20,000 nucleotides of DNA from an uncultured virus (IMG/VR IMGVR_UViG_3300050821_007680). Its lineage: Duplodnaviria > Heunggongvirae > Uroviricota > Caudoviricetes. The notes under the pieces were generated by a model. It had not been told where the DNA came from and made no database searches. It saw nothing but the letters and a program-made list of their open reading frames with translations. Position 1 is the stretch's first letter; the number at the start of each line of letters is the position of its first letter. Shown one piece after another: positions 2-14,054 of this stretch. Location: the IMG/VR virus record IMGVR_UViG_3300050821_007680. The stretch is one strand, 5' to 3'. The position numbers were made by a program, and so were the translations under genes.

Positions 2-2563
2 ACTGGAAATGCTGGAAAAGATAGACCGGGCGAAAGCCCTAAAGGAGGCGAAAGCACAAAAAGCAAAACAGGCTTTAAGAAACCGGATAGCGAGTCAACA
101 GGGGGCAAAGAAGTAAAGAAAACTATCCTTACCAAACGCGCATACGAGGGTGAGGTGCAGCCCGAAGTAAAAAAATATCTGGAAGACAAGGGACTTAAAC
201 GAGCGTCCTTTAGTCAGGAGGAACGGTCAAAACAAGCTACCGACTTTATCAATAAATTCGGCGATGAACCCGCATACCATGCGGTAGATTCGGGCGATAT
301 TGATGGTGGCTTGGCTGCATCCGTGTTGGCGCAATTGCAAATACGCAACAGTGAGGCTATAGAAGATTTACCGGAAGATAGCGAAAGGCGCGACGAACTT
401 GCAAAAAAACACGCAGACCTGATCGCCCTAATGGAAAAGAGAGGGTATTTTAGCGGTGAGTTTATCGGACAACTTGCCCATGAATATCAAAATAAAGATT
501 TGAACTTTGCTTCAATCAAAAGACAGGTCGAAAAACTAACAAAAAAAACACTAACCAAAGAACAGGAATCTAAAATAAAAGAAACAGTAGCCGAAAATGA
601 AAGGTTAAAAACCGCCCTAAAAGATGCCGAAGCTAAATTGATAGAAGAAACCGACAAGGCATTCAGGGCAGGTGAAGAATCTGTTAAAAACGAGACAAAA
701 GCACAAAAAGCTAAACGGATAGCCGATAAAATACGCGCCGGCAAGATACATAGGCCAGGAATATTCAGCAATGCAACACCCGCATCGTTAGCATGGGATA
801 CGGCAGTAGAGGTTGTGGCAAAATCAGTAGAGGCTGGTGGTAAAATAGCGGATGCGATAGAATTGGGACTTGAACATATTCGCAGCACGAGTTGGTATAA
901 AGGGCTGTCTGACAAAAAGAAAACAGAAGCCGAAACAACATTTAAGCGGTATCATAATGACAATTCAGGAAGCGCTGATTTATCAGACCTTCAATCCCGG
1001 TTTGCAGACAAAACAGATAATAAATTCAACCCATCAGAAGCCCGTGATATTTGGGGTTACATGAAAGAAAATTACCTGAATAACGGCACCTCATATGCCG
1101 ATGCACTCTCAAAAACATCACAGGACTTAGGACTCTCGTGGAGGCAGGTCAGCGAGGCCGTTGTGACACCTAAACTAAAACGAATTTCGGATGAGATGTG
1201 GAAGCGAAACTCTGAACTTGCACGGAACAGGTCAGCGATAAAGAATTGGATTGGTCAGCAGGAGTCATCTGCACCTGTACGCGCGTGGAGAAAGATATCG
1301 GGCCTATTGCGGGGCATAGCTACATTCGGTCATGGTCACATATTTTTGGGAACACACGCTGGTATGACATTCTTTAATCCGTCTACATGGAGCAAGACTA
1401 TACCGGCGTTCTTCCGTGGTTTTAAGTTAGCCTATGGCACAGAGGCTGCATACGAACGCAACATGCAGGAACTAAAGAATGAACCCAACTATCTTATCGC
1501 TCAACGTGCCGGGCTAAAGAATGACCCCGACCGTATAAATGTAGAGGAGTTTCAAAAAAGTCAGCAGTATTTAGGCCGATTAGGACATGTAGGGGAGCGG
1601 GGTTTTAACACGATAAAGGTGCTTCGCCAGCATCTGTTTGACTATCACTTTAACAACCTGTCGGCAGCCGAGCGAGACGACCCGGAAGTGGCTAAAAGTA
1701 TAGCTGATTTGGTAAATCTTGCAACGGGGGCGACAACTCTTAAGCTTCCGGCATGGGTTAATGAGGTGTCTTTTGCAGGTGGCATGGAAGCGGCAAGGTG
1801 GGAAAAGCTACTAAAAAGCCCTGCAAAATCAGCAGAAACCTTAGCTAAGGTGATACGCGGCAATCCGACTCCGGCAGAAAAAGTATTTGCCAAAGTATGG
1901 GCGCGTCGGGTAGGCGAACAAGTAGCTACCTATACTTCACTATTGGCAATAAACGCAGCTATTAATAATTATTTTTATCCTAATGATAAAAAAAGATTAT
2001 TTGATCCATCTGACCCTAATTGGTGGAAATTTAAGTTTGGTAAAACAACCATTGATCCTACGTCGGGAATGCGAAGTACGGCGTCTTTCCTGTATGAACT
2101 ATCTACAATCCCATTTAAGAGTAAAGCTGAAAACTACGGAAAAAGCGGATTGGAGGCAGAAGCAAGCGCGGCAGAGGGGTATGGTCGGGGGAAACTTGCG
2201 CCTTTGTATGCCACTATATCCGACTTTGTGGACAACAAAGATTTTAACCGTAATGTTATGCCTAAATTCCCGGTAAAAGCACTTAACTTTAGGAATGATA
2301 GCCCAACTAAGGGGCATCATAAATTAACGTGGATTGAATATGGTACACAAAAACTACCTTTGCCCGTAGCAGAAGGGTTGGGTGTGTTTTATCAATCAGC
2401 ATTAGACCACGGAGCAAATAAGAAACACCTTAACTCAGTTATGGATGGTATTTTATCGGGTGTTATTTCAGGAACAACTGGCTTTAGAGTTGGCGAGTAC
2501 AAAGAAACAAAAGGCAGAATGAAAAAGACTACCTTAGACCCATCCATGCAGAAAAACAAATGA
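2..2563 (+). CDS. Large internal-virion / polyvalent-type protein, C-terminal part (probably 5'-partial)
   Basis: The frame of the 155..2563 ORF stays open back to base 2 (TGNAGKDRPGESPKGG...). The body is helical and coiled-coil. The C-terminal segment DPSDPNWWKFKFGKTTIDPTSG...KLAPLYATISDFVDNKDFNRNVMP resembles C-terminal (LPD38-like) regions of giant phage virion proteins. Confidence 0.65.
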   Translation, partial: TGNAGKDRPGESPKGGESTKSKTGFKKPDSESTGGKEVKKTILTKRAYEGEVQPEVKKYLEDKGLKRASFSQEERSKQATDFINKFGDEPAYHAVDSGDIDGGLAASVLAQLQIRNSEAIEDLPEDSERRDELAKKHADLIALMEKRGYFSGEFIGQLAHEYQNKDLNFASIKRQVEKLTKKTLTKEQESKIKETVAENERLKTALKDAEAKLIEETDKAFRAGEESVKNETKAQKAKRIADKIRAGKIHRPGIFSNATPASLAWDTAVEVVAKSVEAGGKIADAIELGLEHIRSTSWYKGLSDKKKTEAETTFKRYHNDNSGSADLSDLQSRFADKTDNKFNPSEARDIWGYMKENYLNNGTSYADALSKTSQDLGLSWRQVSEAVVTPKLKRISDEMWKRNSELARNRSAIKNWIGQQESSAPVRAWRKISGLLRGIATFGHGHIFLGTHAGMTFFNPSTWSKTIPAFFRGFKLAYGTEAAYERNMQELKNEPNYLIAQRAGLKNDPDRINVEEFQKSQQYLGRLGHVGERGFNTIKVLRQHLFDYHFNNLSAAERDDPEVAKSIADLVNLATGATTLKLPAWVNEVSFAGGMEAARWEKLLKSPAKSAETLAKVIRGNPTPAEKVFAKVWARRVGEQVATYTSLLAINAAINNYFYPNDKKRLFDPSDPNWWKFKFGKTTIDPTSGMRSTASFLYELSTIPFKSKAENYGKSGLEAEASAAEGYGRGKLAPLYATISDFVDNKDFNRNVMPKFPVKALNFRNDSPTKGHHKLTWIEYGTQKLPLPVAEGLGVFYQSALDHGANKKHLNSVMDGILSGVISGTTGFRVGEYKETKGRMKKTTLDPSMQKNK
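3..116 (+). CDS. 3' end of an alternative-frame ORF (...LEMLEKIDRAKALKEAKAQKAKQALRNRIASQQGAKK*)
   Basis: Open from base 3 to TAA 114-116 in a different frame from the large ORF. It reads as a protein-like basic helix. Confidence 0.45.
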   Translation: MEMLEKIDRAKALKEAKAQKAKQALRNRIASQQGAKK

Positions 2564-2721
2564 AACTAACCATTGAAACCGCCGCCGAAGAATCGGTGAA
2601 ACAATATCCCAGCGGCGAGGTGGTTGTTAAGGTTGTAAAAGAAGATTTTGAACAGTTGAAAAATATTATATTGGAGGCGATTGAAAATGGAAATAAAATT
2701 TGTACACAACCTACCGCTTGA
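2560..2721 (+). CDS. Small hypothetical protein, 53 aa (MKLTIETAAEESVKQYPSGEVVVKVVKEDFEQLKNIILEAIENGNKICTQPTA)
   Basis: ATGA overlap with the stop of the large gene. It fills the gap to the GNAT gene and is below the ORF-track cutoff. Confidence 0.6.
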   Translation: MKLTIETAAEESVKQYPSGEVVVKVVKEDFEQLKNIILEAIENGNKICTQPTA

Positions 2722-3184
2722 ACAATCATTGATTTTTGAAGAAATTTATGATGAAAACCTGCAAATGGACTTGGAAGAAAAACTGGAGCTTAAAGATGAT
2801 GGGGCTGAATTTATTTTTATGATAAACGGGGAAAGTGGCGAACTTATAGGCGAAACTTATTTTATCCCGTTGGATGTTTTTGAGGGTGAAGAACCTGATC
2901 CGCTACAACCCGATGAGGGTTTAACGTCTTATTTTGGTAAGGGGTTGATTTATTGTTATTCAACAACAATATTACCAAAACACCAACAGAAAGGTTTTGG
3001 TAAGTTATTAAAAGCATATTTATACGGGTATGTTTACGCCAAGGGGTATAAAGGCAGTATAGCACACGCTAAAGCGGGGGCGTCTATTAAATTAAATACG
3101 TATTTTGGGGCTGAAATAGTTGGTGAATTTGAGAACTGGTATCAAACCGGAATTACCCATTATCTTTATTTGAAGTGGTTTTAG
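2687..3184 (+). CDS. GNAT-family N-acetyltransferase
   Basis: Acetyl-CoA-binding motif A YSTTILPKHQQKGFGKLLK. C-terminal ASIKLNTYFGAEIVGEFENWY resembles motif B of RimI-like GNATs. GGAGG at 2673-2677 precedes ATG 2687. Confidence 0.85.
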   Translation: MEIKFVHNLPLEQSLIFEEIYDENLQMDLEEKLELKDDGAEFIFMINGESGELIGETYFIPLDVFEGEEPDPLQPDEGLTSYFGKGLIYCYSTTILPKHQQKGFGKLLKAYLYGYVYAKGYKGSIAHAKAGASIKLNTYFGAEIVGEFENWYQTGITHYLYLKWF

Positions 3185-3576
3185 AAAGGCAGAAAAAAGA
3201 TTACGACTGTGGTGTATATGCTGTTAATTTTTTAATGGAATTGCATGGTATATATAATTTTGGGATTGATTTTTTAGAGCAAGAACTTAAAACTACCGCT
3301 GACAACGGAACAACACATGAGGATATTTCAAACTGGTTTAATAATGATGTTTTAAGCGGGTATGATAGTGATATTAATAAAATAAAGGTACCGGCATTGG
3401 TCAATTACCAATATGATGGTGAGGGTCATTATGGGGTTGTTTTATGTATAACAAAAAAGATGGTAACGATATATAATCCCGCTATTGGAGATATCGAAAT
3501 AGTAGATAAGGGACAATTTATTTTAAGTTGGTATAGTGAACGTTACGGGAATAAATGGTATTTGTCACTGAAATGA
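3175..3576 (+). CDS. Stand-alone C39-like cysteine peptidase
   Basis: Q-x5-CG (RQKKDYDCG), GTT, GHYGVV and IYNPA motifs give a Cys/His/Asn triad. There is no fused ABC transporter. Confidence 0.85.
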   Translation: MVLERQKKDYDCGVYAVNFLMELHGIYNFGIDFLEQELKTTADNGTTHEDISNWFNNDVLSGYDSDINKIKVPALVNYQYDGEGHYGVVLCITKKMVTIYNPAIGDIEIVDKGQFILSWYSERYGNKWYLSLK

Positions 3577-4838
3577 TGGAAGAAGTAAACCTTAAAGAGA
3601 AAACAATATGCGTGTATGATGAGCGGCTTTGTGTTTCATTGGCACAGCGGCTTGCCCGTGATTACGGTCGTGTTTTATACTTTAGTGAGTGGGCTTGTGC
3701 GTTCCCGTATAAAAAAGACAGCCTTGTTGGCTACGGTATAGAGGGTATTGAACGTATAAAATACTTTTGGCCGTATCTCGATGAAATTGATGTTTTTTGT
3801 TTTCCATTTATTTACAGACCGGATTTACAGGAATATTTAAGAAGCATAGGCAAACAGGTGTGGGGGTCAGGATGGGGGCAAGAAATAGAACTTGACAGGG
3901 CTGATACGAATGGAGATTTACCTAAATTTGGGCTTCCTCAACCATTCATAACTGTCGTAAATGGAGTTGACAATCTGCGTGAGCATCTTTCATCAGTAAA
4001 GAATAAATATATTAAGGTTAGCCAATGGCGCGGTGACAATGAAACATGGAAGCATGAAGATATAAAAACATCTACATCTAAATTAGACGAACTGTCAGTT
4101 GAACTTGGCCCAGAAAAGGATGATTTTGAATTTATAATTGAGGATAAAATAGACGGGGAAGAGTGGGGCTATGACGGATTTTCCGTGAATGGTGAGTTTC
4201 CCAAAACTACACTTTTTGGTATTGAAATTAAGGATTTAGGCTACTGTGCCCATGTTAAAAAACATAAGGATATATCTCCATTGATAACCGACTACCTTGA
4301 TGCTATTGCTCCAACACTTAAAGCTAACGACTACGCTAATTTTTTTCATTCTGAAAACAGAATTACACCTAAAAAGGTATCTTTCCCTATTGATATAACA
4401 TGCCGGATTGGTTTACCACCGGGGGAACTATATATGGAAATGTGTTCAAACCTACCAGAAATCATTTGGTATGGTAGTATCGGCAAGCTTAAAGAGCCTG
4501 AATTTGAAGCTAAATATGGGATTCAAGTAAATATATATTCGAGCAGAAGTGATGATAAATGGAATGAGATACGCTTCCCAAAGGAGATTGACAGGTGGGT
4601 GAAATTGCGCTCGTGTATGAAAAAAAATGACACTTGGTATATTGTGCCTGGAATCGAGCAACTTTTTGAGATAGGTGCAGTTGTGGCTATCGGAAATACA
4701 ATGGATGAATGTATTGAAAAAGTAAAAGAGTATGCCAAACAAATTAAAGGGCATTTGATTGATAAAAAAATAGGCTCAATTGAGGATATGAAGGGGTGTA
4801 TAGAGAATGGTAAGAAAATTGGTATTAATTTCGATTAA
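3573..4838 (+). CDS. ATP-grasp ligase, divergent PurD (GAR synthetase)-like
   Basis: PurD-like spacing of motifs: WGSGWGQEIELDR..KFGLPQP, YIK, FIIEDKIDGEE, DITCRIGLPP (cf. EFNxRFGDPE) and IGAVVAIGNTMDECIEK (cf. GRVLxVxAxGxTLEEA). It lacks the PurD GxGGREH and GPNTGGMG motifs. ATGA overlap with the C39 stop. Confidence 0.75.
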   Translation: MMEEVNLKEKTICVYDERLCVSLAQRLARDYGRVLYFSEWACAFPYKKDSLVGYGIEGIERIKYFWPYLDEIDVFCFPFIYRPDLQEYLRSIGKQVWGSGWGQEIELDRADTNGDLPKFGLPQPFITVVNGVDNLREHLSSVKNKYIKVSQWRGDNETWKHEDIKTSTSKLDELSVELGPEKDDFEFIIEDKIDGEEWGYDGFSVNGEFPKTTLFGIEIKDLGYCAHVKKHKDISPLITDYLDAIAPTLKANDYANFFHSENRITPKKVSFPIDITCRIGLPPGELYMEMCSNLPEIIWYGSIGKLKEPEFEAKYGIQVNIYSSRSDDKWNEIRFPKEIDRWVKLRSCMKKNDTWYIVPGIEQLFEIGAVVAIGNTMDECIEKVKEYAKQIKGHLIDKKIGSIEDMKGCIENGKKIGINFD

Positions 4839-4869: not shown

Positions 4870-5439
4870 ATGGAAATCCTGCTCAATAGCGCCAATGATA
4901 TTTACACCGTAACACTTGATGTTACAGGTAAAACCCTGACCATATCCGGGTGTAATAATTTCCCGCTTGACGTAAGTTCATTAAAGGAGATTTATAATAC
5001 CACACATGCCGGAAATATCGGGCTGCCTGCCGCTAATCAGTTCGCATGGTTCAGGTCAAATGGACTGCCTATTTTTGTTTGGGGATTATCCTCTTTTCCG
5101 GCAGGTTCAGATAATGGTGACACCCTGAATGTGATGCTTGATATACCCCGGACACAATCAATACTATCCCTACAGCAAAAACAGGCATCGGCATCGGCTG
5201 GAACTCCCGGAACGCTCATGACCGCCGAAGTACCATCGGGTACTATAAATGGAACAAATCAAACATTTACGCTGGCGAACACGCCCATAAAGGGCGCAAT
5301 TATGTTGATCTATACACCATCCGGGCAACCGACACAATTTTTACAGTACGGGGTTTATTTTACCGTTTCCGGCAATACCGTTGAGATAGTTGTTCCACCA
5401 TTAACAGGCAGTACACTTTATGCTAACTATTATCACTAA
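4870..5439 (+). CDS. Putative virion structural protein
   Basis: Thr/Gly/Ser-rich beta-type sequence. The C-terminal EVPSGTINGTNQTFTLANTP...FTVSGNTV module is typical of phage tail or decoration proteins. Confidence 0.6.
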   Translation: MEILLNSANDIYTVTLDVTGKTLTISGCNNFPLDVSSLKEIYNTTHAGNIGLPAANQFAWFRSNGLPIFVWGLSSFPAGSDNGDTLNVMLDIPRTQSILSLQQKQASASAGTPGTLMTAEVPSGTINGTNQTFTLANTPIKGAIMLIYTPSGQPTQFLQYGVYFTVSGNTVEIVVPPLTGSTLYANYYH

Positions 5440-5912
5440 TGCCATCAACACCGAGCGGAACAGCAGTAGAGAATAGCCTGACAGGGGGCAGCATCTTATA
5501 TACCGATACAGGTACATACGGCCCGGTTAGTTCCCGTGTGTTGACTATTTTCGATTATCAGGGCAATTTATTGAGTACGATAAACATGGGTACTGGGCTT
5601 ACGGCCACCTATACATTTCCTTCGGATGCCTGGTTTAAGTTTGTCTGTACGGTGATTGATAACACGGGTACATGGGTAACGACGGTATATATCGTTACTG
5701 ACGGATACTATTGGGCTACCTATACCAGCATTTTCACCTCGGCCAATTGTGGATGTGTGGGCAATAACTGCAACCTTGAAGTAAGCTGGCAATGTTTACA
5801 GGCGGCGTTACGCTTTAACCTCGCGGGGCTGTCCGGCGCGGCTTCTGCACAGAATTGCATAGTTGCGGCTAATTATTTTGTAAACCAAAATGCTGTAATC
5901 CAATACGCGTGA
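5439..5912 (+). CDS. Putative virion structural protein
   Basis: TAATG overlap with the upstream gene. Ig-like beta N-terminus followed by a Cys-containing helical C-terminus (NCGCVGNNC). Confidence 0.55.
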   Translation: MPSTPSGTAVENSLTGGSILYTDTGTYGPVSSRVLTIFDYQGNLLSTINMGTGLTATYTFPSDAWFKFVCTVIDNTGTWVTTVYIVTDGYYWATYTSIFTSANCGCVGNNCNLEVSWQCLQAALRFNLAGLSGAASAQNCIVAANYFVNQNAVIQYA

Positions 5913-5913
5913 T

Positions 5914-6732
5914 ATGCCTACGTCAGCACAAGTCCAAACCAGCCTATTAACCGCACAACTCAAAGCGGCCAACCTTACGCTGACAAACATTCTTGCTTTA
6001 CAGGCGGGCGCACTGAGTGCGAACTGGAAGTATATATTTAAGGCGCAAAGGGGCATAAATATTATTCAGAACAAATATAATCAGGGCGACCTATCATCTG
6101 TTACCTTTAAAACCGCCTATTCGTGTTTAACATCGTTTATAGGTAATTATACAGGCGGCACCATTGACCCTAACGCGCAAAATCCGGGTACTGTTATCAA
6201 TATTACAAATCCCGGTGCTACGCCGGTACTGGTAGAATTAAATTTCCCAAAAGGTTCACCAAACCCAATTGTTATATCAAGCTGGCAGGCGATATACTCC
6301 CCAATTTTAGGCAACTTCCCATCAATCCAAGTGTCTACACTCATACCGGACGCTATAAGCACGTTTAAGACACTTGTTCCCGGAAGTGGTGGTATTAACG
6401 GAACATATTACGTTAACCTTGCTGGCGGCAGCGGAAGTGGCGCCAGCGCCTTAATAACCATTGCTGGTAATGTTGTGACATCCGTAACCCTTGATAAAAC
6501 CGGTTCAGCCTACGCCGTAAACGATGTCCTCACCGGCACATTCGGCAGCATATCAGGTTTCAGCATCACTGTAGCGTCGATAGGGGCGACATACACGCCG
6601 TTTACAGCGGGTGCGGTGAAGGTGTATGACCAGGCGACTTCCTCGTTGCTCCAGTATCTGTATATTGATGATCCTGATATAGCTAACCCCCTCCTTACCG
6701 GCGATGCTATTCGGGTGTTGATGAAGCCGTAG
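5914..6732 (+). CDS. Putative virion structural (tail/baseplate-type) protein
   Basis: The module GSGGINGTY..LAGGSGSGASALITIAGNVVTSVTLDKTGSAYAVNDVLT recurs in phage tail and baseplate proteins. Confidence 0.6.
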   Translation: MPTSAQVQTSLLTAQLKAANLTLTNILALQAGALSANWKYIFKAQRGINIIQNKYNQGDLSSVTFKTAYSCLTSFIGNYTGGTIDPNAQNPGTVINITNPGATPVLVELNFPKGSPNPIVISSWQAIYSPILGNFPSIQVSTLIPDAISTFKTLVPGSGGINGTYYVNLAGGSGSGASALITIAGNVVTSVTLDKTGSAYAVNDVLTGTFGSISGFSITVASIGATYTPFTAGAVKVYDQATSSLLQYLYIDDPDIANPLLTGDAIRVLMKP

Positions 6733-7369
6733 AAAAGAGAGTTGGAATTTCTGTAATATTACCCCATTGTTCCGCCATGGCATTTGCGATACCTTGAAAT
6801 GTTTTACTTCTTTCTTTAGCGCTATCCCATGCCTTAAATATCGGCAATTCTGATTTTTTACGTGTCCCGTTTTTTAATAACCCCCCTTGTGTTGAATTAC
6901 TTGTATAATGATATGTTGGCTCGACAATATTGGTAGGCATTAATAGAGGTAGCCCTTTTAACCACAAGCAAGTTCTCTTTTTAAACGGGTCGCCAAATTG
7001 GTATGGGTTTATTATCTGATCCGGTTTTCTATAAACCCTTGACATTATACCCGTCGGATTTTCAATTGCTATTTTACTGCATGTATTATTTACGAATAAC
7101 ATAAAGAAATCAATCGCTGATTGCTGTCTGCCGTCTAATTGTTTTTGTTTCCAACCGGGCGCGCCGGCTGCTGATAAATGCGTACATGGCGGGAAAGCTA
7201 TAATCATACCCCATTGCTGTTTCAACAACTCGGTTACATCTTTTTGTAGGTGCCATTCGGGGTGACCGCCACTACACGGCAATATATCACATGAATATGC
7301 TTCATGGCCCCGCTTCCTAAACTCAATAGTCACGACCTGACTTTCTTCACAAGCTATTAATATTTTCAT
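6707..7369 (-). CDS. Phage-type DNA cytosine (C5) methyltransferase
   Basis: ILIACEES variant of motif I, SCD motif II, FPPCTHL catalytic PC motif IV, IENP motif VI, KxTCLW motif VIII and RSKTFxGIAxAMAEQWG motif X. It overlaps the convergent + strand gene by 26 nt. Confidence 0.85.
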   Translation of the reverse strand: MKILIACEESQVVTIEFRKRGHEAYSCDILPCSGGHPEWHLQKDVTELLKQQWGMIIAFPPCTHLSAAGAPGWKQKQLDGRQQSAIDFFMLFVNNTCSKIAIENPTGIMSRVYRKPDQIINPYQFGDPFKKRTCLWLKGLPLLMPTNIVEPTYHYTSNSTQGGLLKNGTRKKSELPIFKAWDSAKERSKTFQGIANAMAEQWGNITEIPTLFSTASSTPE

Positions 7370-7542
7370 CTTATCTCCGAATGTAAAGTATCCACATTAA
7401 TATCAAGGGTGGTGTCGAAATCGACCTTGTATGGCACCGTTTTAGGATGCGGTGTATCTTTTATCCACCAAAAGGCAATTATGGCTATCAGCAGTACTAA
7501 CAAGAATAATCGGTGCAGGGTGTTTTGGGTTGGACGGTTCAT
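7366..7542 (-). CDS. Small single-TM protein, 58 aa (MNRPTQNTLHRLFLLVLLIAIIAFWWIKD...)
   Basis: ATGA overlap with the methyltransferase start and one hydrophobic helix. Confidence 0.6.
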   Translation of the reverse strand: MNRPTQNTLHRLFLLVLLIAIIAFWWIKDTPHPKTVPYKVDFDTTLDINVDTLHSEIR

Positions 7543-7545
7543 GGT

Positions 7546-7884
7546 TTATTTAAGACTTGCAATTAAATCACGTTCATAATTACTTATATCTTGTTTTCCA
7601 GGCTTGCCACCCGATTCATTCAAAATCTTTTTAGCCCTTAAAATAGTCAGACGAGATGGCCGGTATCGCTGAATACCCTTTCTCAACCAAAAGCAACAAT
7701 AGGGATAATTTTCAATCCAAATTCTTGCATTTCCTAAATCGGCGTTATGATGATCTATATTGGTAAATTTGTGATTATTCAATAACTCGTTTAATTTATC
7801 GTCCCATTGTTTATTAAAGGGTATCAACATCAACCAAAAACTTGGCCTGAATATGAATTGTAAATTTTTTATGAAGTCTTTCAT
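7546..7884 (-). CDS. Hypothetical phage protein
   Basis: 112-aa ORF in the minus-strand gene run. Confidence 0.7.
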   Translation of the reverse strand: MKDFIKNLQFIFRPSFWLMLIPFNKQWDDKLNELLNNHKFTNIDHHNADLGNARIWIENYPYCCFWLRKGIQRYRPSRLTILRAKKILNESGGKPGKQDISNYERDLIASLK

Positions 7885-7921
7885 TTTATCGTTGTTTTAT
7901 CAATGGCTAAACCTTTGGGGA

Positions 7922-8176
7922 TTAAATTACAGTAGTACCAAGTGACATAATGCAGTACCCTTCAGATAATCCAGGCACTTCTAAGTTGCGTATAACATCA
8001 TTGACCATTACGACCAATTCTTCACCTGTATATCTATCATCTTTGGGTACGTATTCTCTTAGATGTAAATAATCCCCGGGCTGATACTTGCGGTCGTCTT
8101 TACGCAATTCAAATCGCTTTGAACCGTTTAATACCATTTGGAAGTATCTTGGCCATGTTTTTAGTTCGTGTATCAT
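7922..8176 (-). CDS. DUF3850 / ASCH (PUA-like) domain protein
   Basis: HELKTWPRYFxxVLNGSKRFELRKDDRKYQPGDYLHLREY signature. Confidence 0.85.
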   Translation of the reverse strand: MIHELKTWPRYFQMVLNGSKRFELRKDDRKYQPGDYLHLREYVPKDDRYTGEELVVMVNDVIRNLEVPGLSEGYCIMSLGTTVI

Positions 8177-8277
8177 TTTTCTTTCACTAAGTTAACAAGT
8201 TTCACAGCAAGCCAAAAGGCAGCCCCTACCATTACCAAGCCGGTTAGGGCGGAATAGAGTGTCCAGAGAAAGATCAT
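8173..8277 (-). CDS. Small single-TM protein, 34 aa (MIFLWTLYSALTGLVMVGAAFWLAVKLVNLVKEK)
   Basis: ATGA overlaps at both ends. Confidence 0.55.
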   Translation of the reverse strand: MIFLWTLYSALTGLVMVGAAFWLAVKLVNLVKEK

Positions 8278-8540
8278 GGGCGTAGTAGTTTACGTAACCG
8301 CATCACAAATGATAACTTATCCGGCTGTTTCTTCTTCCGCTTATTGATTTCAGCAACACGCTTTTTCAAGTTGCCAGGCATCTCGGTTTTTACAGTAGCA
8401 TCTTTAAACTTTGGCATTATCGGTTTTTTTAACGGGCGTGCCTTATCACATAATCGTTCTTTATCATCTGCCGCCCATCCGGTATGCCCTTTAGGATTTT
8501 CCGGTTCGGGGGTAATTACTTTTAGGGTTGATTTGTTCAT
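8274..8540 (-). CDS. Hypothetical basic protein
   Basis: 88-aa ORF with an AT-rich upstream region. Confidence 0.6.
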   Translation of the reverse strand: MNKSTLKVITPEPENPKGHTGWAADDKERLCDKARPLKKPIMPKFKDATVKTEMPGNLKKRVAEINKRKKKQPDKLSFVMRLRKLLRP

Positions 8541-8559
8541 GGTTTTTAATTAATAAATA

Positions 8560-8775
8560 TTAAGATGCCTTTATATACTTTTTTAAAACCTTATAAAGCC
8601 AAAATGGCAAGTTGGTTTGCTTTTCTAAACCAAATCCATCATGATTTAAGCATTGGTATCTGAATCCATTTTGATTTATTGAATAATATCCAGGGCCACA
8701 ATAAACATGTAATTTATGTCTTGATTTAACAAAATCAAATTGATTTTTTGATAAAATCTTAACTGCTATTTTCAT
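8560..8775 (-). CDS. Hypothetical protein
   Basis: 71-aa ORF in the gene run. Confidence 0.6.
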   Translation of the reverse strand: MKIAVKILSKNQFDFVKSRHKLHVYCGPGYYSINQNGFRYQCLNHDGFGLEKQTNLPFWLYKVLKKYIKAS

Positions 8776-8803
8776 ATTTTTTTATTTAAAGTTCTTTTAT
8801 TTT

Positions 8804-8881
8804 TCATCTTTCACATTTTTTAATTAAGCAAAAACAACATACTGGGATGCTGAATATTGCATAGATTATTAGGATTATCAT
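8804..8881 (-). CDS. Possible 25-aa hydrophobic peptide (MIILIIYAIFSIPVCCFCLIKKCER)
   Basis: ATGA overlap with the upstream stop and it fills the gap, but it is very short. Confidence 0.35.
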   Translation of the reverse strand: MIILIIYAIFSIPVCCFCLIKKCER

Positions 8882-9360
8882 AGTTCTTTGATTTTTGAAA
8901 TGAGCTTTTTAATTGCCTTATTTATACCTTCATCGTATAACATAGAGTACTTTTGAGTAATTTCAGATTTCAGTATTTCCACCACCCGATCTTTTAACCA
9001 TGCTTGCTCTTGTTGTTTTTGCCAGTTTGCGCCAAATTCAGCCCCGCCAACAAACGCATCGTCTGTATCATCATAACTGCCATCCAGTTTAAATAGAAAG
9101 TCTTTGGCTGCAATCTTAATGTCTTTGACGTTTAAAGTAATACCGTCCAGCTCCACGCTTTCTTTTACCTGGACTTCAAAATTATCTTTAATAACTTTAA
9201 ATGTTTGAGGACTTGTCATTTTTTGTAAAAGAGGTAATGAGAGGCGGTATTTATCGAGCATGTCATCGCCGAATTGGTCTCGTGCATAAATTGCTACATA
9301 TCTCCCTTTCTCATCAGGGCTTAATGCTTCGTATTCTGTTGGGGTGAGGGTTGGTTTCAT
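8878..9360 (-). CDS. Hypothetical phage protein
   Basis: 160-aa ORF. The DAFVGGAEFGANWQKQQ segment resembles the AFxxGAxWQ motif common in small Bacteroidota phage proteins. Confidence 0.7.
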   Translation of the reverse strand: MKPTLTPTEYEALSPDEKGRYVAIYARDQFGDDMLDKYRLSLPLLQKMTSPQTFKVIKDNFEVQVKESVELDGITLNVKDIKIAAKDFLFKLDGSYDDTDDAFVGGAEFGANWQKQQEQAWLKDRVVEILKSEITQKYSMLYDEGINKAIKKLISKIKEL

Positions 9361-9366
9361 TTGATT

Positions 9367-9567
9367 TTATACATAGAAGTATGGTAAATAATCTTGTTGT
9401 ATGAATTTCGGATTACCGTTATTATCCATTAAACAATTATCATCTGGTGCATCGTACATTTCGTTTGCTGTGAAAATAACACCTTCTTTACCCCCTAAAT
9501 TTATCGTGACCTTGCACTTAATTCTGGAGTCTTTTTCTATCATTATTTTTCTTGATGGCCTTTTCAT
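9367..9567 (-). CDS. Hypothetical protein
   Basis: 66-aa ORF with an ATGA overlap. Confidence 0.6.
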   Translation of the reverse strand: MKRPSRKIMIEKDSRIKCKVTINLGGKEGVIFTANEMYDAPDDNCLMDNNGNPKFIQQDYLPYFYV

Positions 9568-9764
9568 TGCGTTATTATTTTAAAATGCCTCGGAGCGTCT
9601 ATTTGATTGTCCTTAAAAATTTGATTAACTAATGTCAATTCCGAAACATCACCCTTCAAAACAAACCAATTATTACCACCTTTATCTACGAATAGACGCG
9701 GGTTAATCATATTTAGGCCACTTCCCCAAGCATCCCAAATTAAAATCCAAATACCGTTCCCCAT
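9564..9764 (-). CDS. Hypothetical protein
   Basis: 66-aa ORF, tightly packed between neighbours. Confidence 0.55.
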   Translation of the reverse strand: MGNGIWILIWDAWGSGLNMINPRLFVDKGGNNWFVLKGDVSELTLVNQIFKDNQIDAPRHFKIITQ

Positions 9765-9765
9765 G

Positions 9766-9993
9766 CTATTTATAATTATCGTTTTTTATTTGAATTCCTT
9801 CCATTTCTTTAGCTATTGCCTGTATTAAATCCTTTGTTGCGAATAGAGATAGCTCGGTATCATCGGTTATCGCCATAAGAAGCGTCAAGTATGACTTGAA
9901 TAAGTCTTCGCCATGAAAAGCTGCTTTATGAATTTCTATTTTATCGTAGTAATCCATTTCTCTGTTTGCTGAAATTGTGTTTAATTCGCTCAT
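9766..9993 (-). CDS. Hypothetical protein
   Basis: 75-aa helical ORF. Confidence 0.6.
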   Translation of the reverse strand: MSELNTISANREMDYYDKIEIHKAAFHGEDLFKSYLTLLMAITDDTELSLFATKDLIQAIAKEMEGIQIKNDNYK

Positions 9994-9997
9994 ATTT

Positions 9998-10252
9998 TCA
10001 TTTCGTTAAATATTTTTCTACATTAATATTGGTTATGCTGGATTTGTCGACTATAGTTTTATATCTTGGGTTGACTGGAGCGATATCCTGAATATACTCG
10101 GTCTTTATGGTCGCCCTTTCCGCCGCATCTTCCAGCACTTGTTTTATTATGGTGGTGACTTCGGCTTTTGAATACATTTCGGCGGTTTTAAATGCTGCAT
10201 AATCTTTCATGCAATCAATTTGTTGCTGTGTTTGCTTATTTTCCATCATCAA
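9998..10252 (-). CDS. Hypothetical phage protein (start may be 10249 or 10246)
   Basis: The LEDAAERATIK...IVDKSSITN pattern is reminiscent of small Bacteroidota phage proteins. Confidence 0.65.
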   Translation of the reverse strand: MMMENKQTQQQIDCMKDYAAFKTAEMYSKAEVTTIIKQVLEDAAERATIKTEYIQDIAPVNPRYKTIVDKSSITNINVEKYLTK

Positions 10253-10433
10253 CTAATTTAATATTATCCTTAAAATAACTATAATCCGGTTCATCTTTTA
10301 TATCCAACCTGAACCAAAGCCCATCAGCTATTACTCTTTTTATTATTCCTTTTTTGCCAATTAAGTTTCTATTCGTACATCCATCAGGGAGGCTTATCAT
10401 CTCAACCAGGTTGCCTATTTCTTTACTTTCCAT
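10236..10433 (-). CDS. Hypothetical protein, possible SH3/KOW-like barrel
   Basis: IGNLVEM...LIGKKGIIKRV...FRLDI beta-strand pattern. Confidence 0.6.
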   Translation of the reverse strand: MESKEIGNLVEMISLPDGCTNRNLIGKKGIIKRVIADGLWFRLDIKDEPDYSYFKDNIKLVDDGK

Positions 10434-10647
10434 TATTTGATGTAGTTAAATTATCACGCATGTCACTGCTAAATTTCATGCCTTTTACAAATCCCTGCTT
10501 AAAGAATATATCGGTTAACTCTGTAAACAATTGGGCCTCGATCAATCCAATAATTAATTTTTGTTCATCTGTCCTAAATTTTAGGATTTCTTCGGTGCAT
10601 CTTGTGATAGCTTCATCAACAAGGTTATTTATTTTGTTACTTTCCAT
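10423..10647 (-). CDS. Hypothetical protein (MESNKINN...)
   Basis: ATG at 10647 is preferred over the ORF-track start at 10677 because it overlaps the end of the upstream 45-aa ORF. Confidence 0.6.
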   Translation of the reverse strand: MESNKINNLVDEAITRCTEEILKFRTDEQKLIIGLIEAQLFTELTDIFFKQGFVKGMKFSSDMRDNLTTSNNGK

Positions 10648-10774
10648 TGTCTTTCTTTTTCTTCGGTTTCCCCACATCTATCAACTCATTACAAACCGTG
10701 CAATAGGTGCGGATTTCGGTTTCTGTGCCGGATTGAACGGTTGTGGGGTGAGGGCAAATTTTGTTTTTACTCAT
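10637..10774 (-). CDS. Small Zn-ribbon-like protein, 45 aa ([45 protein letters not shown])
   Basis: CxH...CxxC motif and an ATGA overlap with the upstream gene. Confidence 0.6.
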
Positions 10775-11208
10775 ATTAATAGCAATTGCTTAAACCCGCC
10801 ATCTTTTATCTTTTCATAATACGTCTTTTTGCCATCTGTTAAATACGGGAAAAACAACTCCAGTGTATCAGCTTGTTCTAACCGTATCATTGTTAACTGA
10901 ATTTCAACCCAATCCGATATTATCTTCCATGCGGTTCTTTCCGCTTGTTCAAAACAAATTTCCAGACTTCTATTTGTAGGTTTTACATATTCGGCTAAAA
11001 ACAATTTTTCAATGGCTTCTTTTTTACATGGCAATTGAAACGTTAATTGCATGCCATTGCATGGCAAGATAAAGGCAATCCCTGAACATGTACCATTTTC
11101 ATCGTACCGCTTCATTATATCTCTTGCCCCGGCCAAAACCAAATTCTTTTCAATTTTTGCCATTGATACCGATGCGCTTACTGTTGATGAATAATTTTTA
11201 ATGTTCAT
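10771..11208 (-). CDS. Conserved phage protein of unknown function
   Basis: [19 protein letters not shown]...Y and [19 protein letters not shown]...Q....E.FFPY are the signature of a widespread phage hypothetical family. Confidence 0.75.
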
Positions 11209-11342
11209 TTTTACTTAGTTATTTTTATGCGGTTTTCATCATTAAAAATTAATTTTGACAAGTGCCGCTCAAATCAATCAAATGTGCCGTTCCTTATCCT
11301 ACTACCAAAAATAAAATTATCGTTTGAAATAGGCTATTTAAA

Positions 11343-11561
11343 TTACTTCCTGTAAAGGTAAACTTTGCCACATTGTTTGACATAAAAATTGTCCTTTTCA
11401 AGACCCGAATTAAAGAACCTTTCAACCTCTTTTTGCATCCGATCGATTGGTATATAATCAACCAGCCGGTTAATTGAAATCACTTTATATCTGAATGGCC
11501 TAACATCGCCTTTCTTTACATACGGGTGAAATACAACGATCAATTCTTTTTTGAGGTTCAT
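11343..11561 (-). CDS. Hypothetical protein
   Basis: 72-aa ORF with an ATGA overlap. Confidence 0.6.
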   Translation of the reverse strand: MNLKKELIVVFHPYVKKGDVRPFRYKVISINRLVDYIPIDRMQKEVERFFNSGLEKDNFYVKQCGKVYLYRK

Positions 11562-11896
11562 AACGGCAATGTATCTTCAAAGTGCAAATGTTGCTTCCCC
11601 TTAACCTTAATATCGCGCCCATTTTCACAAGACATGAATTTAATTCTTAGTCCAATGTTGTTACCTGGCCCCAGTTGATTATTCAACCAACCGATACAAT
11701 ACATTTCATCGTTACCATTCGAGTGGTGACACGCCATTGCATTGCCAATAGTAATATTTAAATCCTTTGCTATTGTGCATTCTAATGCCCTATGACGTTC
11801 AACTGAATATCCGTCCGGTATTGTATGCGGGTTAGTCGAAACTTTCCAGGGGCATTTTGCACATTGTACTATTCTATTTAATTGAAACTTTTTCAT
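11558..11896 (-). CDS. Cys/His-rich Zn-binding protein, DUF6283-like
   Basis: CAKCPW...MACHH...CIGWL motif pattern. Confidence 0.65.
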   Translation of the reverse strand: MKKFQLNRIVQCAKCPWKVSTNPHTIPDGYSVERHRALECTIAKDLNITIGNAMACHHSNGNDEMYCIGWLNNQLGPGNNIGLRIKFMSCENGRDIKVKGKQHLHFEDTLPL

Positions 11897-12081
11897 ATCT
11901 TCTCATCGCTAAACAACTCCGCATACTCCTTAACCATTGTAAAAAACATCGCATTTTCACCGATCGAATAATCATTAACATTATCGGCTAAGTACTGGCT
12001 GACAACCCGGACATCCTCTTTGCAGTTGATTGCGTCGAAGTAGTCGAATATTTCGTGCGGGGTGTAGGGTTTAAAGGTCAT
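11893..12081 (-). CDS. Hypothetical protein
   Basis: 62-aa ORF with ATGA overlaps on both sides. Confidence 0.6.
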   Translation of the reverse strand: MTFKPYTPHEIFDYFDAINCKEDVRVVSQYLADNVNDYSIGENAMFFTMVKEYAELFSDEKI

Positions 12082-12449
12082 ACTGGTATGTCAATAACGG
12101 GTAAAACGGCTAACCAGCCTTTTATTACAAGCAACCCGATTGCGCTAACAAACCATGATTTAATCAGGTCGCGAATTTTCTTGTTCCATATAAAGGATTG
12201 CTTTTCAAATTCAACCAAAATATCATAATCTTTATGCGGCCCGGTTATACACATCGTGCTATGATACAACTCGTAATTAGCCCAATGAATACTTTTCTTT
12301 ACGCCTAAATAATAGCAGAGAACAATATCCTCAAATAAAAGAGGTGTTTTATCTTTAACGCATTTACACATTGTCTGCAATAGCAATTCCTGACCCTTGG
12401 ACATTTCGCGCCTGCGTTGGTTGCTTATTATTAGCCCCGTTTCTTTCAT
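12078..12449 (-). CDS. Hypothetical phage protein (MKETGLIISNQ...)
   Basis: ATG 12449 overlaps the upstream TGA. Confidence 0.65.
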   Translation of the reverse strand: MKETGLIISNQRRREMSKGQELLLQTMCKCVKDKTPLLFEDIVLCYYLGVKKSIHWANYELYHSTMCITGPHKDYDILVEFEKQSFIWNKKIRDLIKSWFVSAIGLLVIKGWLAVLPVIDIPV

Positions 12450-12547
12450 AACCAAATTACAATTAACCCCACAACCGCCGCACCGACTAATATACCGGCG
12501 AAGAATGAGAGGGTGAGGTCGTGCGTGTAAGTGGATGTGTGTTTCAT
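12446..12547 (-). CDS. Small single-TM protein, 33 aa (MKHTSTYTHDLTLSFFAGILVGAAVVGLIVIWL)
   Basis: ATGA overlaps at both ends. Confidence 0.55.
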   Translation of the reverse strand: MKHTSTYTHDLTLSFFAGILVGAAVVGLIVIWL

Positions 12548-12864
12548 AATCCGTAACTTTCTCTTATTTCCACCATTTTTGCATTGTGAACATCCATTGC
12601 TTCCTTTCCGACCACCTTGCATAATTCAGAGCACGCATACCGCTGCTGTTCATTTACCACAAAATTCATTTGCTTCTGAAATAAAACATTTTGCTGGTGT
12701 AAATCTCGTGGTATTAACTTAGGGAGTGACTGCTGTTTTACAAATACCTTTAAATAAATATTAATCTTTGGTATTAAATCCTGCTTACTAATGTAGTTTT
12801 GACTTATAATTAATTCAGCTATTTTTTCAGCAACGCTTAAAGTTGTTATTTCTGAACCTTTCAT
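12544..12864 (-). CDS. Hypothetical protein (MKGSEITT...)
   Basis: ATG 12864 lies directly after the upstream TAA. Confidence 0.65.
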   Translation of the reverse strand: MKGSEITTLSVAEKIAELIISQNYISKQDLIPKINIYLKVFVKQQSLPKLIPRDLHQQNVLFQKQMNFVVNEQQRYACSELCKVVGKEAMDVHNAKMVEIRESYGL

Positions 12865-12865
12865 G

Positions 12866-12997
12866 TTAAACCTTATCAAAATGAATAACACCATTCATCG
12901 CCATTACCATTAAAATAGCCGCCATTATAATTGACAGGACTAAAAAGCCAAGCAGTTGTTTTTGATTTGTTGTGAGGTTTTTGTAGTAAGTTTTCAT
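12866..12997 (-). CDS. Small single-TM protein, 43 aa (MKTYYKNLTTNQKQLLGFLVLSIIMAAILMVMAMNGVIHFDKV)
   Basis: First gene downstream of the promoter at 13019-13049, with one TM helix. Confidence 0.6.
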   Translation of the reverse strand: MKTYYKNLTTNQKQLLGFLVLSIIMAAILMVMAMNGVIHFDKV

Positions 12998-13018
12998 ATC
13001 TCTTTGTTTTTGTTAAGT

Positions 13019-13049
13019 CAAATATAATAATTAATTGCGTATTGTCAAT
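13019..13049 (-). promoter_or_regulatory. Bacteroidota sigma70-type promoter (leftward)
   Basis: The minus strand reads ATTG-N19-TATATTTG, matching the -33 TTTG / -7 TAnnTTTG consensus with one mismatch. Confidence 0.65.
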
Positions 13050-13059
13050 AGTAATATTT

Positions 13060-13251
13060 CTATTTATTTATAACTTGTTGATTATCAGACAATTTATTTT
13101 CAATTACAAACTTTTGATAGCCTATATGAATGTATTCTCCACCATACATAGCATATATCGGGCAGTCGATCATTGGTATTTTTTTAGACTGCCTTACATT
13201 TTGTTGGCTTGTACGATGTTCGTTTGCGTATTGTTGGATTGTTTTTATCAT
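13060..13251 (-). CDS. Small putative HTH DNA-binding protein
   Basis: The N-terminal TIQQYANEHRTSQQNVRQ fits a helix-turn-helix pattern of the Xis/Cro-like kind. Confidence 0.45.
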   Translation of the reverse strand: MIKTIQQYANEHRTSQQNVRQSKKIPMIDCPIYAMYGGEYIHIGYQKFVIENKLSDNQQVINK

Positions 13252-13715
13252 GATTTTTTAATAAAGGAATTTCTAAATTGTTCCATTTTCTCAAATTCAA
13301 TAGGATAGGTTATTTTTTGCCAATTTCGTCTTTCGCTTTCATGGCGTTCAAAGGCATCTAAGTCAAATGACTTAAAGGCAAAATATCTCGCACCGCTTTC
13401 TTCAAATGTGCCATTTAATGAAAAATGGGTGTGATTTGGCCAACCGCCTTTTAATAATTTTGAAACTCCAATTCCGTAATGATTGGCAATTAAGAATTTA
13501 TTGCCCTGTTTGGTGGTAACCTCTATGGCTGGAATCAGTGAAAAATGATTACCATTCGATTTTACAAAATGGTCGTCTTTAAATGAGCCGTCTATTTCTT
13601 CTTTGGTATAGCATTCAAAATTATACCAGTATAACGGTTTTTCTGAATTTTCCTGTTGATTTACGTATCCAAACCTTACAGATACGGGGTCACCTTGCCA
13701 TTGATATTTTTTCAT
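13248..13715 (-). CDS. Hypothetical phage protein
   Basis: 155-aa ORF with ATGA overlaps. Confidence 0.7.
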   Translation of the reverse strand: MKKYQWQGDPVSVRFGYVNQQENSEKPLYWYNFECYTKEEIDGSFKDDHFVKSNGNHFSLIPAIEVTTKQGNKFLIANHYGIGVSKLLKGGWPNHTHFSLNGTFEESGARYFAFKSFDLDAFERHESERRNWQKITYPIEFEKMEQFRNSFIKKS

Positions 13716-13975
13716 GCTAAATCAATTGTATTAACGGGTTGAAATGGGCACCATGAACCAGGTTCTACCCCATCGCCCCAATTGTTAAGATTGCCGCTAA
13801 AGGATAATTTCATTGGTGGTTGCGGCGCGGATTCATGAATACAATCATCCCGATAAATTGGGTCATGTCCTGATTTTACCAAGCTATGTTTGTGGTATTT
13901 ACAACCCTGGCATGTTGTGTATATTTTTGCCGGACGCATTTCATTTTTCGGCCCCTCTTGATTTGGATAACTCAT
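13712..13975 (-). CDS. Putative Zn-binding hypothetical protein
   Basis: CQGCKY...C.H...PGSWCPF four-Cys pattern. Confidence 0.65.
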   Translation of the reverse strand: MSYPNQEGPKNEMRPAKIYTTCQGCKYHKHSLVKSGHDPIYRDDCIHESAPQPPMKLSFSGNLNNWGDGVEPGSWCPFQPVNTIDLA

Positions 13976-14043: not shown

Positions 14044-14051
14044 TATATTTG
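14044..14051 (+). promoter_or_regulatory. Possible -7 box (TATATTTG) of a divergent rightward promoter
   Basis: TAnnTTTG match 3 nt before ATG 14055, which would give a near-leaderless mRNA. There is no well-spaced -33 box. Confidence 0.4.
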
Positions 14052-14054
14052 AAC

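Follow-up and report, generated by a model that had tools for sequence, protein, structure and literature searches.

The window analysed here is a 20,000-nucleotide stretch of DNA from an uncultured Caudoviricetes virus (IMG/VR record IMGVR_UViG_3300050821_007680). Near the end of a ~27-kb one-strand late operon, it encodes a GNAT-fold N-acyltransferase, a C39-like cysteine peptidase and a PurD-fold ATP-grasp ligase in a chain of overlapping genes. We observed the same gene order in four further contigs, and we observed the GNAT and the C39 peptidase as a single fused polypeptide in other phages. Folds, catalytic residues, gene order and fusion were all documented directly. We tentatively favour the reading that the GNAT and the peptidase cut and cap as a pair, were recruited to an amide ligase conserved in late operons, and together with it act on a peptide or protein of phage or host origin.

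The three enzymes and their gene chain

The ligase matched no Pfam family above threshold. A family profile built from 32 sequences reached PurD (2yw2, E 8.1e-8) as its best match in the Protein Data Bank (PDB). When the structural model of the ligase (predicted local distance difference test, pLDDT, 94.6) was compared by Foldseek, the 15 best hits were all PurD structures (E 1e-19 to 4e-15, TMq 0.64-0.74, 420-468 columns), followed by biotin carboxylases, the L-amino-acid ligase 3vot and PurK. These folds agree with the initial annotation of this DNA, which had called the enzyme PurD-like rather than RimK-like. Like PurD (2yw2, 2qk4, 1gso), the ligase has a multi-domain ATP-grasp fold over its whole length, at 12-16% identity to PurD structures.

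The ligase nevertheless differs from PurD. TIGR00877, the purD equivalog, had no match in the phage contig, whereas 14 of 14 control genomes scored above the cut-off, and it did not match the ligase protein at E ≤ 1. GARS_A (PF01071) matched five of the 32 family members (best E 0.0082), all below the gathering score, and the window protein was unmatched. The alignment with 2yw2 places the 'EFNVRLGDPE' of PurD against 'iDfcaRlgsPp' of the ligase family. The Arg of the R-x-G-x-P stretch is kept, and the E-x-N of PurD becomes D-x-C/T (D274-I-T276-C-R278 in the window). An ordinary PurD was ruled out on the two profiles, the changed E-x-N and the low identity; the virus-dominated family and the late operon with no purine context set the ligase further apart. 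We observed 25 residues invariant in the 32 sequences, including K148, R153, E157, E197, D201, E218, K220, E261, R263, D274 and R278. From the charged residues among them we infer a nucleotide and metal site, and the roles of the individual residues. By the chemistry of its superfamily, the enzyme would join a carboxylate to an amine through an acyl phosphate.

The C39 peptidase was assigned by Pfam (PF03412, E 9.1e-10, 38.9 bits against a gathering cut-off of 22; homologues, 51.8-52.1 bits). Q6, C12, H85 and N101 were invariant in six homologues, so the peptidase assignment of the initial annotation holds, with the Q-C-H-N set intact. We take the third catalytic position of ComA to be Asp; the window protein has Asn there (N101). 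A family profile of 35 sequences had the prophage endoisopeptidase PeiR as its best solved match (8z4h, E 4.8e-10), then the ComA peptidase domain (3k8u, E 8.3e-9), followed by PCAT1 (4ry2) and LahT (6mpz), both at ~E 2e-6. The Gln, Cys and His of the family align with those of PeiR and ComA. Unlike ComA, PCAT1, LahT and PeiR, with which it shares a Pfam C39 match above threshold and these aligned residues, the window protein is a stand-alone enzyme without a transporter or wall-binding domain. We found no transporter among the scanned open reading frames (ORFs) of the window, as the initial annotation had claimed, and the peptidase is not a domain of an ATP-binding cassette (ABC) exporter. 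The Pei enzymes are described as pseudomurein endoisopeptidases in passages of PMC4592898. According to parts of PMC13642728 (2026), a C39-like archaeal protein with a Q-C-H motif had glycosidase rather than peptidase activity, which calls for caution, since the fold does not fix the chemistry.

The GNAT scored 16.2 bits against the Pfam cut-off of 20.7, and homologues were at or above this cut-off in L016 (25.1 bits) and L044 (20.7 bits). Its AlphaFold model (pLDDT 96.3) returned at least 500 PDB matches at E ≤ 0.001, and all of those listed with an assigned function were GNAT acetyltransferases. Foldseek neighbours at a template modelling (TM) score of 0.65-0.75 comprised RimI-type and NAA60 N-terminal acetyltransferases, phosphinothricin acetyltransferases (PAT/BAR) and the spermidine acetyltransferase SpeG. 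GNATs are defined by a Q/R-x-x-G-x-G/A motif that binds acyl-coenzyme A (acyl-CoA). The window protein keeps this motif as Q100-Q-K-G103-F-G105, with Q100 and G103 invariant in five homologues and G103 nearly invariant in 20. The model, the Foldseek neighbours and the motif confirm the GNAT assignment. The protein N-terminal acetyltransferases among the nearest folds also fit the earlier suggestion that the GNAT caps freed amines, although capping itself stays a putative activity. Neither the GNAT nor the C39 peptidase had a tblastn match in GenBank phages.

We used the gene starts that align with the first residues of homologues (Table 1). The four co-directional overlapping genes were as first described: the giant gene meets orf53 in an ATGA at 2560-2563, orf53 overlaps the GNAT gene by 35 nt, the GNAT gene overlaps the C39 gene by 10 nt, and the C39 stop codon overlaps the ligase start codon in an ATGA at 3573-3576. 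We regard the GNAT-C39 unit as translationally coupled to the ligase. The GNAT ATG at 2687 and the C39 GTG start each aligned with M1 of homologues, and the length of the ligase (421 aa) agrees with that of an identical gene-called protein, P0001. The guanine-plus-cytosine (GC) fraction was 0.383 for orf53, 0.361 for the GNAT gene, 0.323 for the C39 gene and 0.376 for the ligase gene, compared to 0.439 for the giant gene and 0.442-0.471 for g189, g157 and g272. Relative to its structural flanks, then, the cassette is rich in AT (GC 0.32-0.38 vs 0.44-0.47), as had been claimed, but its values are not outlying beside the 0.388 mean of the window and the 0.355 of the minus-strand block (7400-13975).

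Table 1. Features of the cassette and its neighbours, with positions counted in the window.
Feature	Position	Strand	Remark
Giant ORF, last 853 codons of a 1682-aa protein	2..2563	+	no known family
orf53, small acidic protein, 53 codons	2560..2721	+	neighbour of the ligase, kept in its nearest relatives
GNAT-fold N-acyltransferase, 165 aa	2687..3184	+	AlphaFold model and Foldseek
Stand-alone C39-like cysteine (iso)peptidase, 133 aa	3175..3576	+	PF03412
PurD-fold ATP-grasp carboxylate-amine ligase, 421 aa	3573..4838	+	family profile and fold; large virus-dominated family
Three late genes, g189, g157 and g272 (189, 157 and 272 aa)	4870..6732	+	close plus-strand operon

Recurrence, fusion and the ligase family

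The order GNAT, C39, ligase recurred in two metagenome contigs (L043 and L044) and two IMG/VR contigs (L046, 80 kb, and L048, 78.5 kb). The three genes are thus syntenic beyond the window, and a synteny check did not refute the proposed cassette. Overlaps and gaps within the trio were 0-16 nt in the window, L043, L044 and L048. L046 has a NUMOD3 homing endonuclease gene (L046:5899-6795, E 2.6e-25) between the C39 and ligase genes. Among the distinct contigs that bear C39, the ligase lay immediately downstream in 5 of 8, and all five had the split form closest to the window.

Across the trio loci, identity to the window proteins was 50-62% for the GNAT, 40-47% for C39 and 30-33% for the ligase. 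The GNAT-C39 pair is better conserved than the ligase that accompanies it, which fits movement of the pair between ligase loci or its repeated loss. A ligase tree, which left out L044 (an 85-aa fragment), L046 and L048, needed two changes of the trio label. It cannot decide between movement and loss because L043 sits on a long branch (1.75). A three-chain complex prediction (ligase plus GNAT, with C39 as the scored partner) gave 0.02, 0.49 and 0.00 against a mark of 0.32 and was uninformative either way.

We searched exhaustively for C39 homologues with the family profile and obtained 1349 cluster representatives at E ≤ 1e-3. We examined 152 of these, the 150 best-listed together with P0124 and P0125. 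Stand-alone proteins of at most 200 aa made up 133 of the 152, and 15 (two apparently truncated) had a GNAT of the window type fused to their N-terminal side. The part of these fusions that precedes C39 aligned over the whole window GNAT, with Y89 and H127 invariant. Since the GNAT and C39 are fused into one polypeptide in other phages, the two act together as one functional unit. A further fused copy was found on a 5.7-kb contig of a metagenome-assembled genome, which is too short to judge linkage to a ligase. A context search with the fused-protein alignment A13 added a weak GNAT fragment only.

The remaining four representatives were longer, and in three of these the C39 domain is embedded. 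These three proteins (P0157, P0184 and P0207; 523-719 aa, glycine-rich) contain many aromatic-x-[DN]-G-G repeats, which may be self-processing sites or part of a virion-associated hydrolase architecture.

The ligase belongs to a large family. A search at E ≤ 1e-3 yielded 229 homologues, most of them encoded by contigs 10-117 kb long, and the ESM Atlas clusters of the family were 79-100% viral, with up to 1438 members. Of 37 IMG/VR ligase loci taken, 27 entered a non-redundant set of 30, with the window and two GenBank Aquificae viruses. These two viruses (24-26% identity) were the only tblastn matches of the ligase in GenBank phages, and the published account of them does not mention the ligase gene. 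In the 30 loci, the ligase gene comes after either a portal gene or a giant ORF.

The neighbours of the ligase varied. A small HExxE protein adjoined it in 7 of the 30 loci, and its Atlas model was weakly similar to M78/IrrE and SprT-like zincins (TM ~0.5). A peptidase partner of the ligase may therefore recur in a non-homologous form, if the weak likeness of this model is a guide. An AdoMetDC-like protein adjoined the ligase in two loci (L019, E 5e-15; L009, E 2.3e-4). Other loci had small, very acidic or very basic ORFs, or none. Two of the seven HExxE proteins were fused to an Erv1/Alr sulfhydryl oxidase (L035:8425-9120, E 3.3e-8; L037:9136-9831, E 2e-6). In two unrelated loci, the ligase region is directly preceded by very basic ORFs of 45-55 aa (L043:1127-1264 and L035:6837-7004) that share '..QAVAIAYSVQ[KR]KA..', and L016 has a 45-aa ORF with a net charge of -18 at the same spot.

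We observed inteins (LAGLIDADG_3 and Intein_splicing) in two ligase homologues of ~790 aa (L037:6641-8992 and L039:5411-7810). One insertion point in the ligase directly follows the D274 motif and the other is R153-D155; active-site motifs of important enzymes are the usual place for inteins. One 496-aa homologue, P0091, has an N-terminal acylphosphatase domain of ~75 aa (PF00708, E 1.9e-13). The domain is of note here, since acyl phosphates are the intermediates of ATP-grasp enzymes. No longer fused form of the ligase was found among proteins of 869-2480 aa, a search that provides weak evidence.

Proposed action, substrates and competing explanations

We propose that the C39 peptidase would first open a peptide or isopeptide bond, that the GNAT would then acetylate the amine freed by this cut, and that the ligase would finally use a carboxylate of the molecule that was cut to form a new amide. 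All three enzymes would act on one substrate and in this order. Candidate targets are a virion or ejected protein of the same operon, or a host protein. As substrates, peptides or proteins are more likely than purine precursors or natural products of ribosomal origin, because C39 and its solved relatives cut peptides, because the GNAT resembles N-terminal acetyltransferases and because the genes lie in a late operon behind the giant protein. The HExxE partner, as a possible zincin-like peptidase (weak likeness), points the same way.

Several observations weigh against our proposal. The closest ligase relatives (L004, L014 and L015; 43-45% identity, clade support 100/99) have neither GNAT nor C39, and in them the giant gene or an orf53 homologue leads straight to the ligase, which argues that the ligase does not need the pair. 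By tblastn across the 30 ligase loci, C39 was found in the window alone and a GNAT elsewhere only in L016, and the trio is not the basic unit. In the comparison of neighbouring genes, 24 of the 30 loci were without either gene. The ligase family is usually without GNAT-C39, with HExxE or AdoMetDC-like partners instead. Trio loci beyond the first 30 were found by C39 and GNAT searches, which biases the sample towards adjacency. A 45.3-kb phage genome that encodes fused GNAT-C39 (estimated completeness 92%) gave no ligase match at E ≤ 0.01. A second fusion-bearing phage, 86% complete, does have a distant ligase-like ORF (E ~1e-11), but this ORF is 6 kb away from the fusion and on the other strand. 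The pair can therefore work alone. The Mg-binding Asn of the PurD E-x-N is replaced by Cys or Thr in the ligase family, and ligase activity is thus not assured. PurD-type three-domain ATP-grasp enzymes usually act on small molecules.

The search for a substrate gene also counts against the proposal. No candidate substrate or precursor-peptide gene was kept across the five trio loci, a survey that very small or divergent genes could escape. The 53-aa ORF, previously named as a candidate substrate, is kept only in relatives without GNAT and C39. L004 and L014 have ORFs of 55 aa in the corresponding position, in which M[KR][LV]TIET...YP[SN]GE can be recognised by eye as common to them and orf53, and its profile matches were weak (Pfam E 0.097; phrog_9704 E 0.0023). 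Gly-Gly sites are present in the giant protein and g157. The idea of a double-glycine substrate was dropped, as the Gly-Gly contexts of the giant protein and its neighbours have no common motif, and the Gly-Gly of g157 is equally conserved in relatives without C39.

A second explanation, rather unlikely but the nearest competitor, is that GNAT-C39 works autonomously as an effector, acetylating and cleaving a protein of the host (or of the phage). The pair and the ligase would then have in common only a spot that tolerates insertions, between the genes for the giant protein and the ligase, and the ligase would do an unrelated job. The fused copies without a nearby, co-directional ligase speak for it. 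The spot before the ligase is variable, with 45-67 aa ORFs, HExxE, AdoMetDC-like genes or nothing, and with the NUMOD3 endonuclease in L046; the AT-richness of the cassette points in the same direction. According to PMC5512222, GNATs and peptidases encoded on their own next to late genes are likely to correspond to domains of polyvalent proteins and to be delivered with the capsid. The placement of the window genes, behind a 1682-aa protein in a terminase-portal operon, fits the pattern described there. In the account of PMC7552054, Rac, which is a GNAT of phages, sets off the cleavage of the alpha subunit of host RNA polymerase. However, all five contigs with split GNAT and C39 have the pair immediately upstream of the ligase, despite a ligase identity to the window of ~30-33%. 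The GNAT of the GNAT-only locus L016 adjoins the ligase, and the C39 stop overlaps the ligase start in the window, L044 and L048.

A role of the module in producing or altering a small molecule is unlikely. Such a product would be an amide derived from an amino acid, for which a dipeptide-like antimetabolite, a polyamine (aminoacyl or acetyl) used in DNA packaging and a ribosomal peptide are examples, and the GNAT and peptidase would serve to tailor, activate or self-protect. The closest folds of the ligase (PurD, biotin carboxylases, 3vot and PurK) all use small substrates. AdoMetDC-like decarboxylase genes lie by the ligase in L019 and L009, the GNAT neighbours include phosphinothricin and spermidine acetyltransferases, and P0091 carries its acylphosphatase domain. 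The combination of ATP-grasp ligase, GNAT and peptidase is also the logic of microviridins and tabtoxin-type prodrugs. However, we found no precursor-peptide gene, transporter or extra biosynthetic enzyme common to the five trio loci. C39 and its relatives (PeiR, ComA, PCAT1 and LahT) cut peptides or cell-wall peptide links rather than small amides, and the possible, weak zincin likeness of the HExxE partner points to protein-directed peptidases. The microviridin/graspetide type of ribosomally synthesized and post-translationally modified peptide pathway, invoked by the initial annotation, is not favoured, given the lack of a conserved precursor gene and a ligase that is not RimK-like.

We consider two further possibilities improbable. 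One is that C39 is a cell-wall endopeptidase or endoisopeptidase for entry or lysis, with neighbours that are unrelated or that modify wall-peptide precursors. The best solved match of the C39 profile is a prophage lysin (PeiR), and wall hydrolase domains occur embedded in virion proteins, as the C39 domain is in the 523-719 aa glycine-rich proteins. No other lysin turned up in the scanned parts of the phage, scans that fell short of every ORF. On the other side, that C39 is fused to a GNAT of the acetyl-CoA type and coupled to a ligase that needs ATP speaks for a cytoplasmic location. C39 has no holin-like or membrane protein next to it on this strand, and bacteriocin-type C39 domains match almost as well as PeiR (ComA, E 8.3e-9; PCAT1 and LahT, ~E 2e-6).

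The other is that the ligase and an interchangeable peptidase (C39 here, HExxE elsewhere) form a phage protein-tagging or cross-linking system, by analogy with ubiquitin or Pup. C39 would expose a C-terminal glycine, and the ligase would activate that carboxylate as an acyl phosphate and link the glycine to an amine, such as that of a lysine, on a host protein or on a virion or ejected protein. Capping of the other cut end would fall to the GNAT, and C39, with an isopeptidase as its nearest solved relative, could also reverse the link. This possibility draws on glycine being the carboxylate substrate of PurD itself.

Finally, an auxiliary purine-synthesis role of the ligase as a true PurD (glycinamide ribonucleotide, GAR, synthetase) is highly improbable: PurD gives both its best fold match and its best PDB profile match, and some sources label homologues phosphoribosylamine-glycine ligase, but it fails TIGR00877 and GARS_A, shares 12-16% identity, has an altered E-x-N and lies in a late operon with no other purine genes nearby.

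Genomic setting, known systems and significance

We also assessed the genes around the cassette. The large terminase (phrog_6681, E 1.2e-44) and portal (phrog_6547, E 1.8e-39) genes head the operon upstream on the same strand, where several 'virion structural' matches and a 1346-aa ORF also lie. The full length of the giant protein was taken from L003:943-5991 (the same sequence in a 44.5-kb IMG/VR contig), and it matched no Pfam or PHROG family. Homologues of it adjoin the ligase in six other loci, upstream in L004, L014, L015, L022 and L023 and downstream in L018. Those at L022:208-7002 and L023:424-7002 contain a region like the RIIA or topoisomerase-ATPase PHROG (E 1e-8 to 1e-9). By its position in the operon, the giant protein is probably a virion protein. 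The earlier description of the cassette as behind a giant virion protein and ahead of structural genes is thus right as to its place in a terminase-portal late operon, while the virion status is suggested by that place.

Downstream of the ligase, g189, g157 and g272 are all kept in L014 and L015, and g189 alone was also matched in L004/L005. The 272-aa protein weakly matches the 'virion structural protein' family phrog_6005 (E 8e-5). A DNA methyltransferase gene at 6707-7369 (minus strand; phrog_757, E 3.5e-63) opens a minus-strand block of mostly small genes of no assigned function, and an ASCH/DUF3850 protein (7922-8176, minus strand, E 2.5e-25) also lies at the start of this block. An 894-aa ORF at 14049-16733 (plus strand) has 11 Gly-Gly sites and matched no Pfam or PHROG family. 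A megablast of the whole window against phages gave no match.

Among the closest known counterparts are the microviridin/graspetide pathways, which use ATP-grasp ligases, a GNAT and a C39-bearing transporter. The window has the same three enzyme classes and the same logic of cleaving, ligating and acetylating. Unlike these pathways, its ligase is PurD-like rather than of the RimK/MdnB-C kind and its genes lie in a phage late operon; its C39 is free-standing (GNAT-fused elsewhere) rather than carried on an ABC transporter. Rac of phiKMV-like phages, as presented in parts of PMC7552054, is likewise a phage GNAT whose action ends in specific protein cleavage, but it comes without its own peptidase and depends on the host. 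We found no phage PurD-like ligase module and no GNAT-C39 pair or fusion described in full-text literature, a scope outside which most subscription journals and supplements fall. The earlier claim that no characterised phage system combines ATP-grasp, GNAT and C39 agrees with this search, which turned up none. The enzyme classes and their cleave/ligate/acetylate logic are known; the ligase clade is a different one, the fused partner is new and the setting is a phage late operon.

Phage late operons, which are assumed to hold structural and assembly genes, contain a large, virus-dominated family of ATP-dependent ligases. The GNAT-C39 partner, fused in other phages, points this whole ligase family towards peptide or protein chemistry, and three enzymes with named catalytic residues can be tested together by direct experiment. 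Should the module modify virion or injected proteins, it would be a novel form of host take-over or of virion maturation by enzymes. If instead a small amide is made, it would be a new phage-made metabolite.

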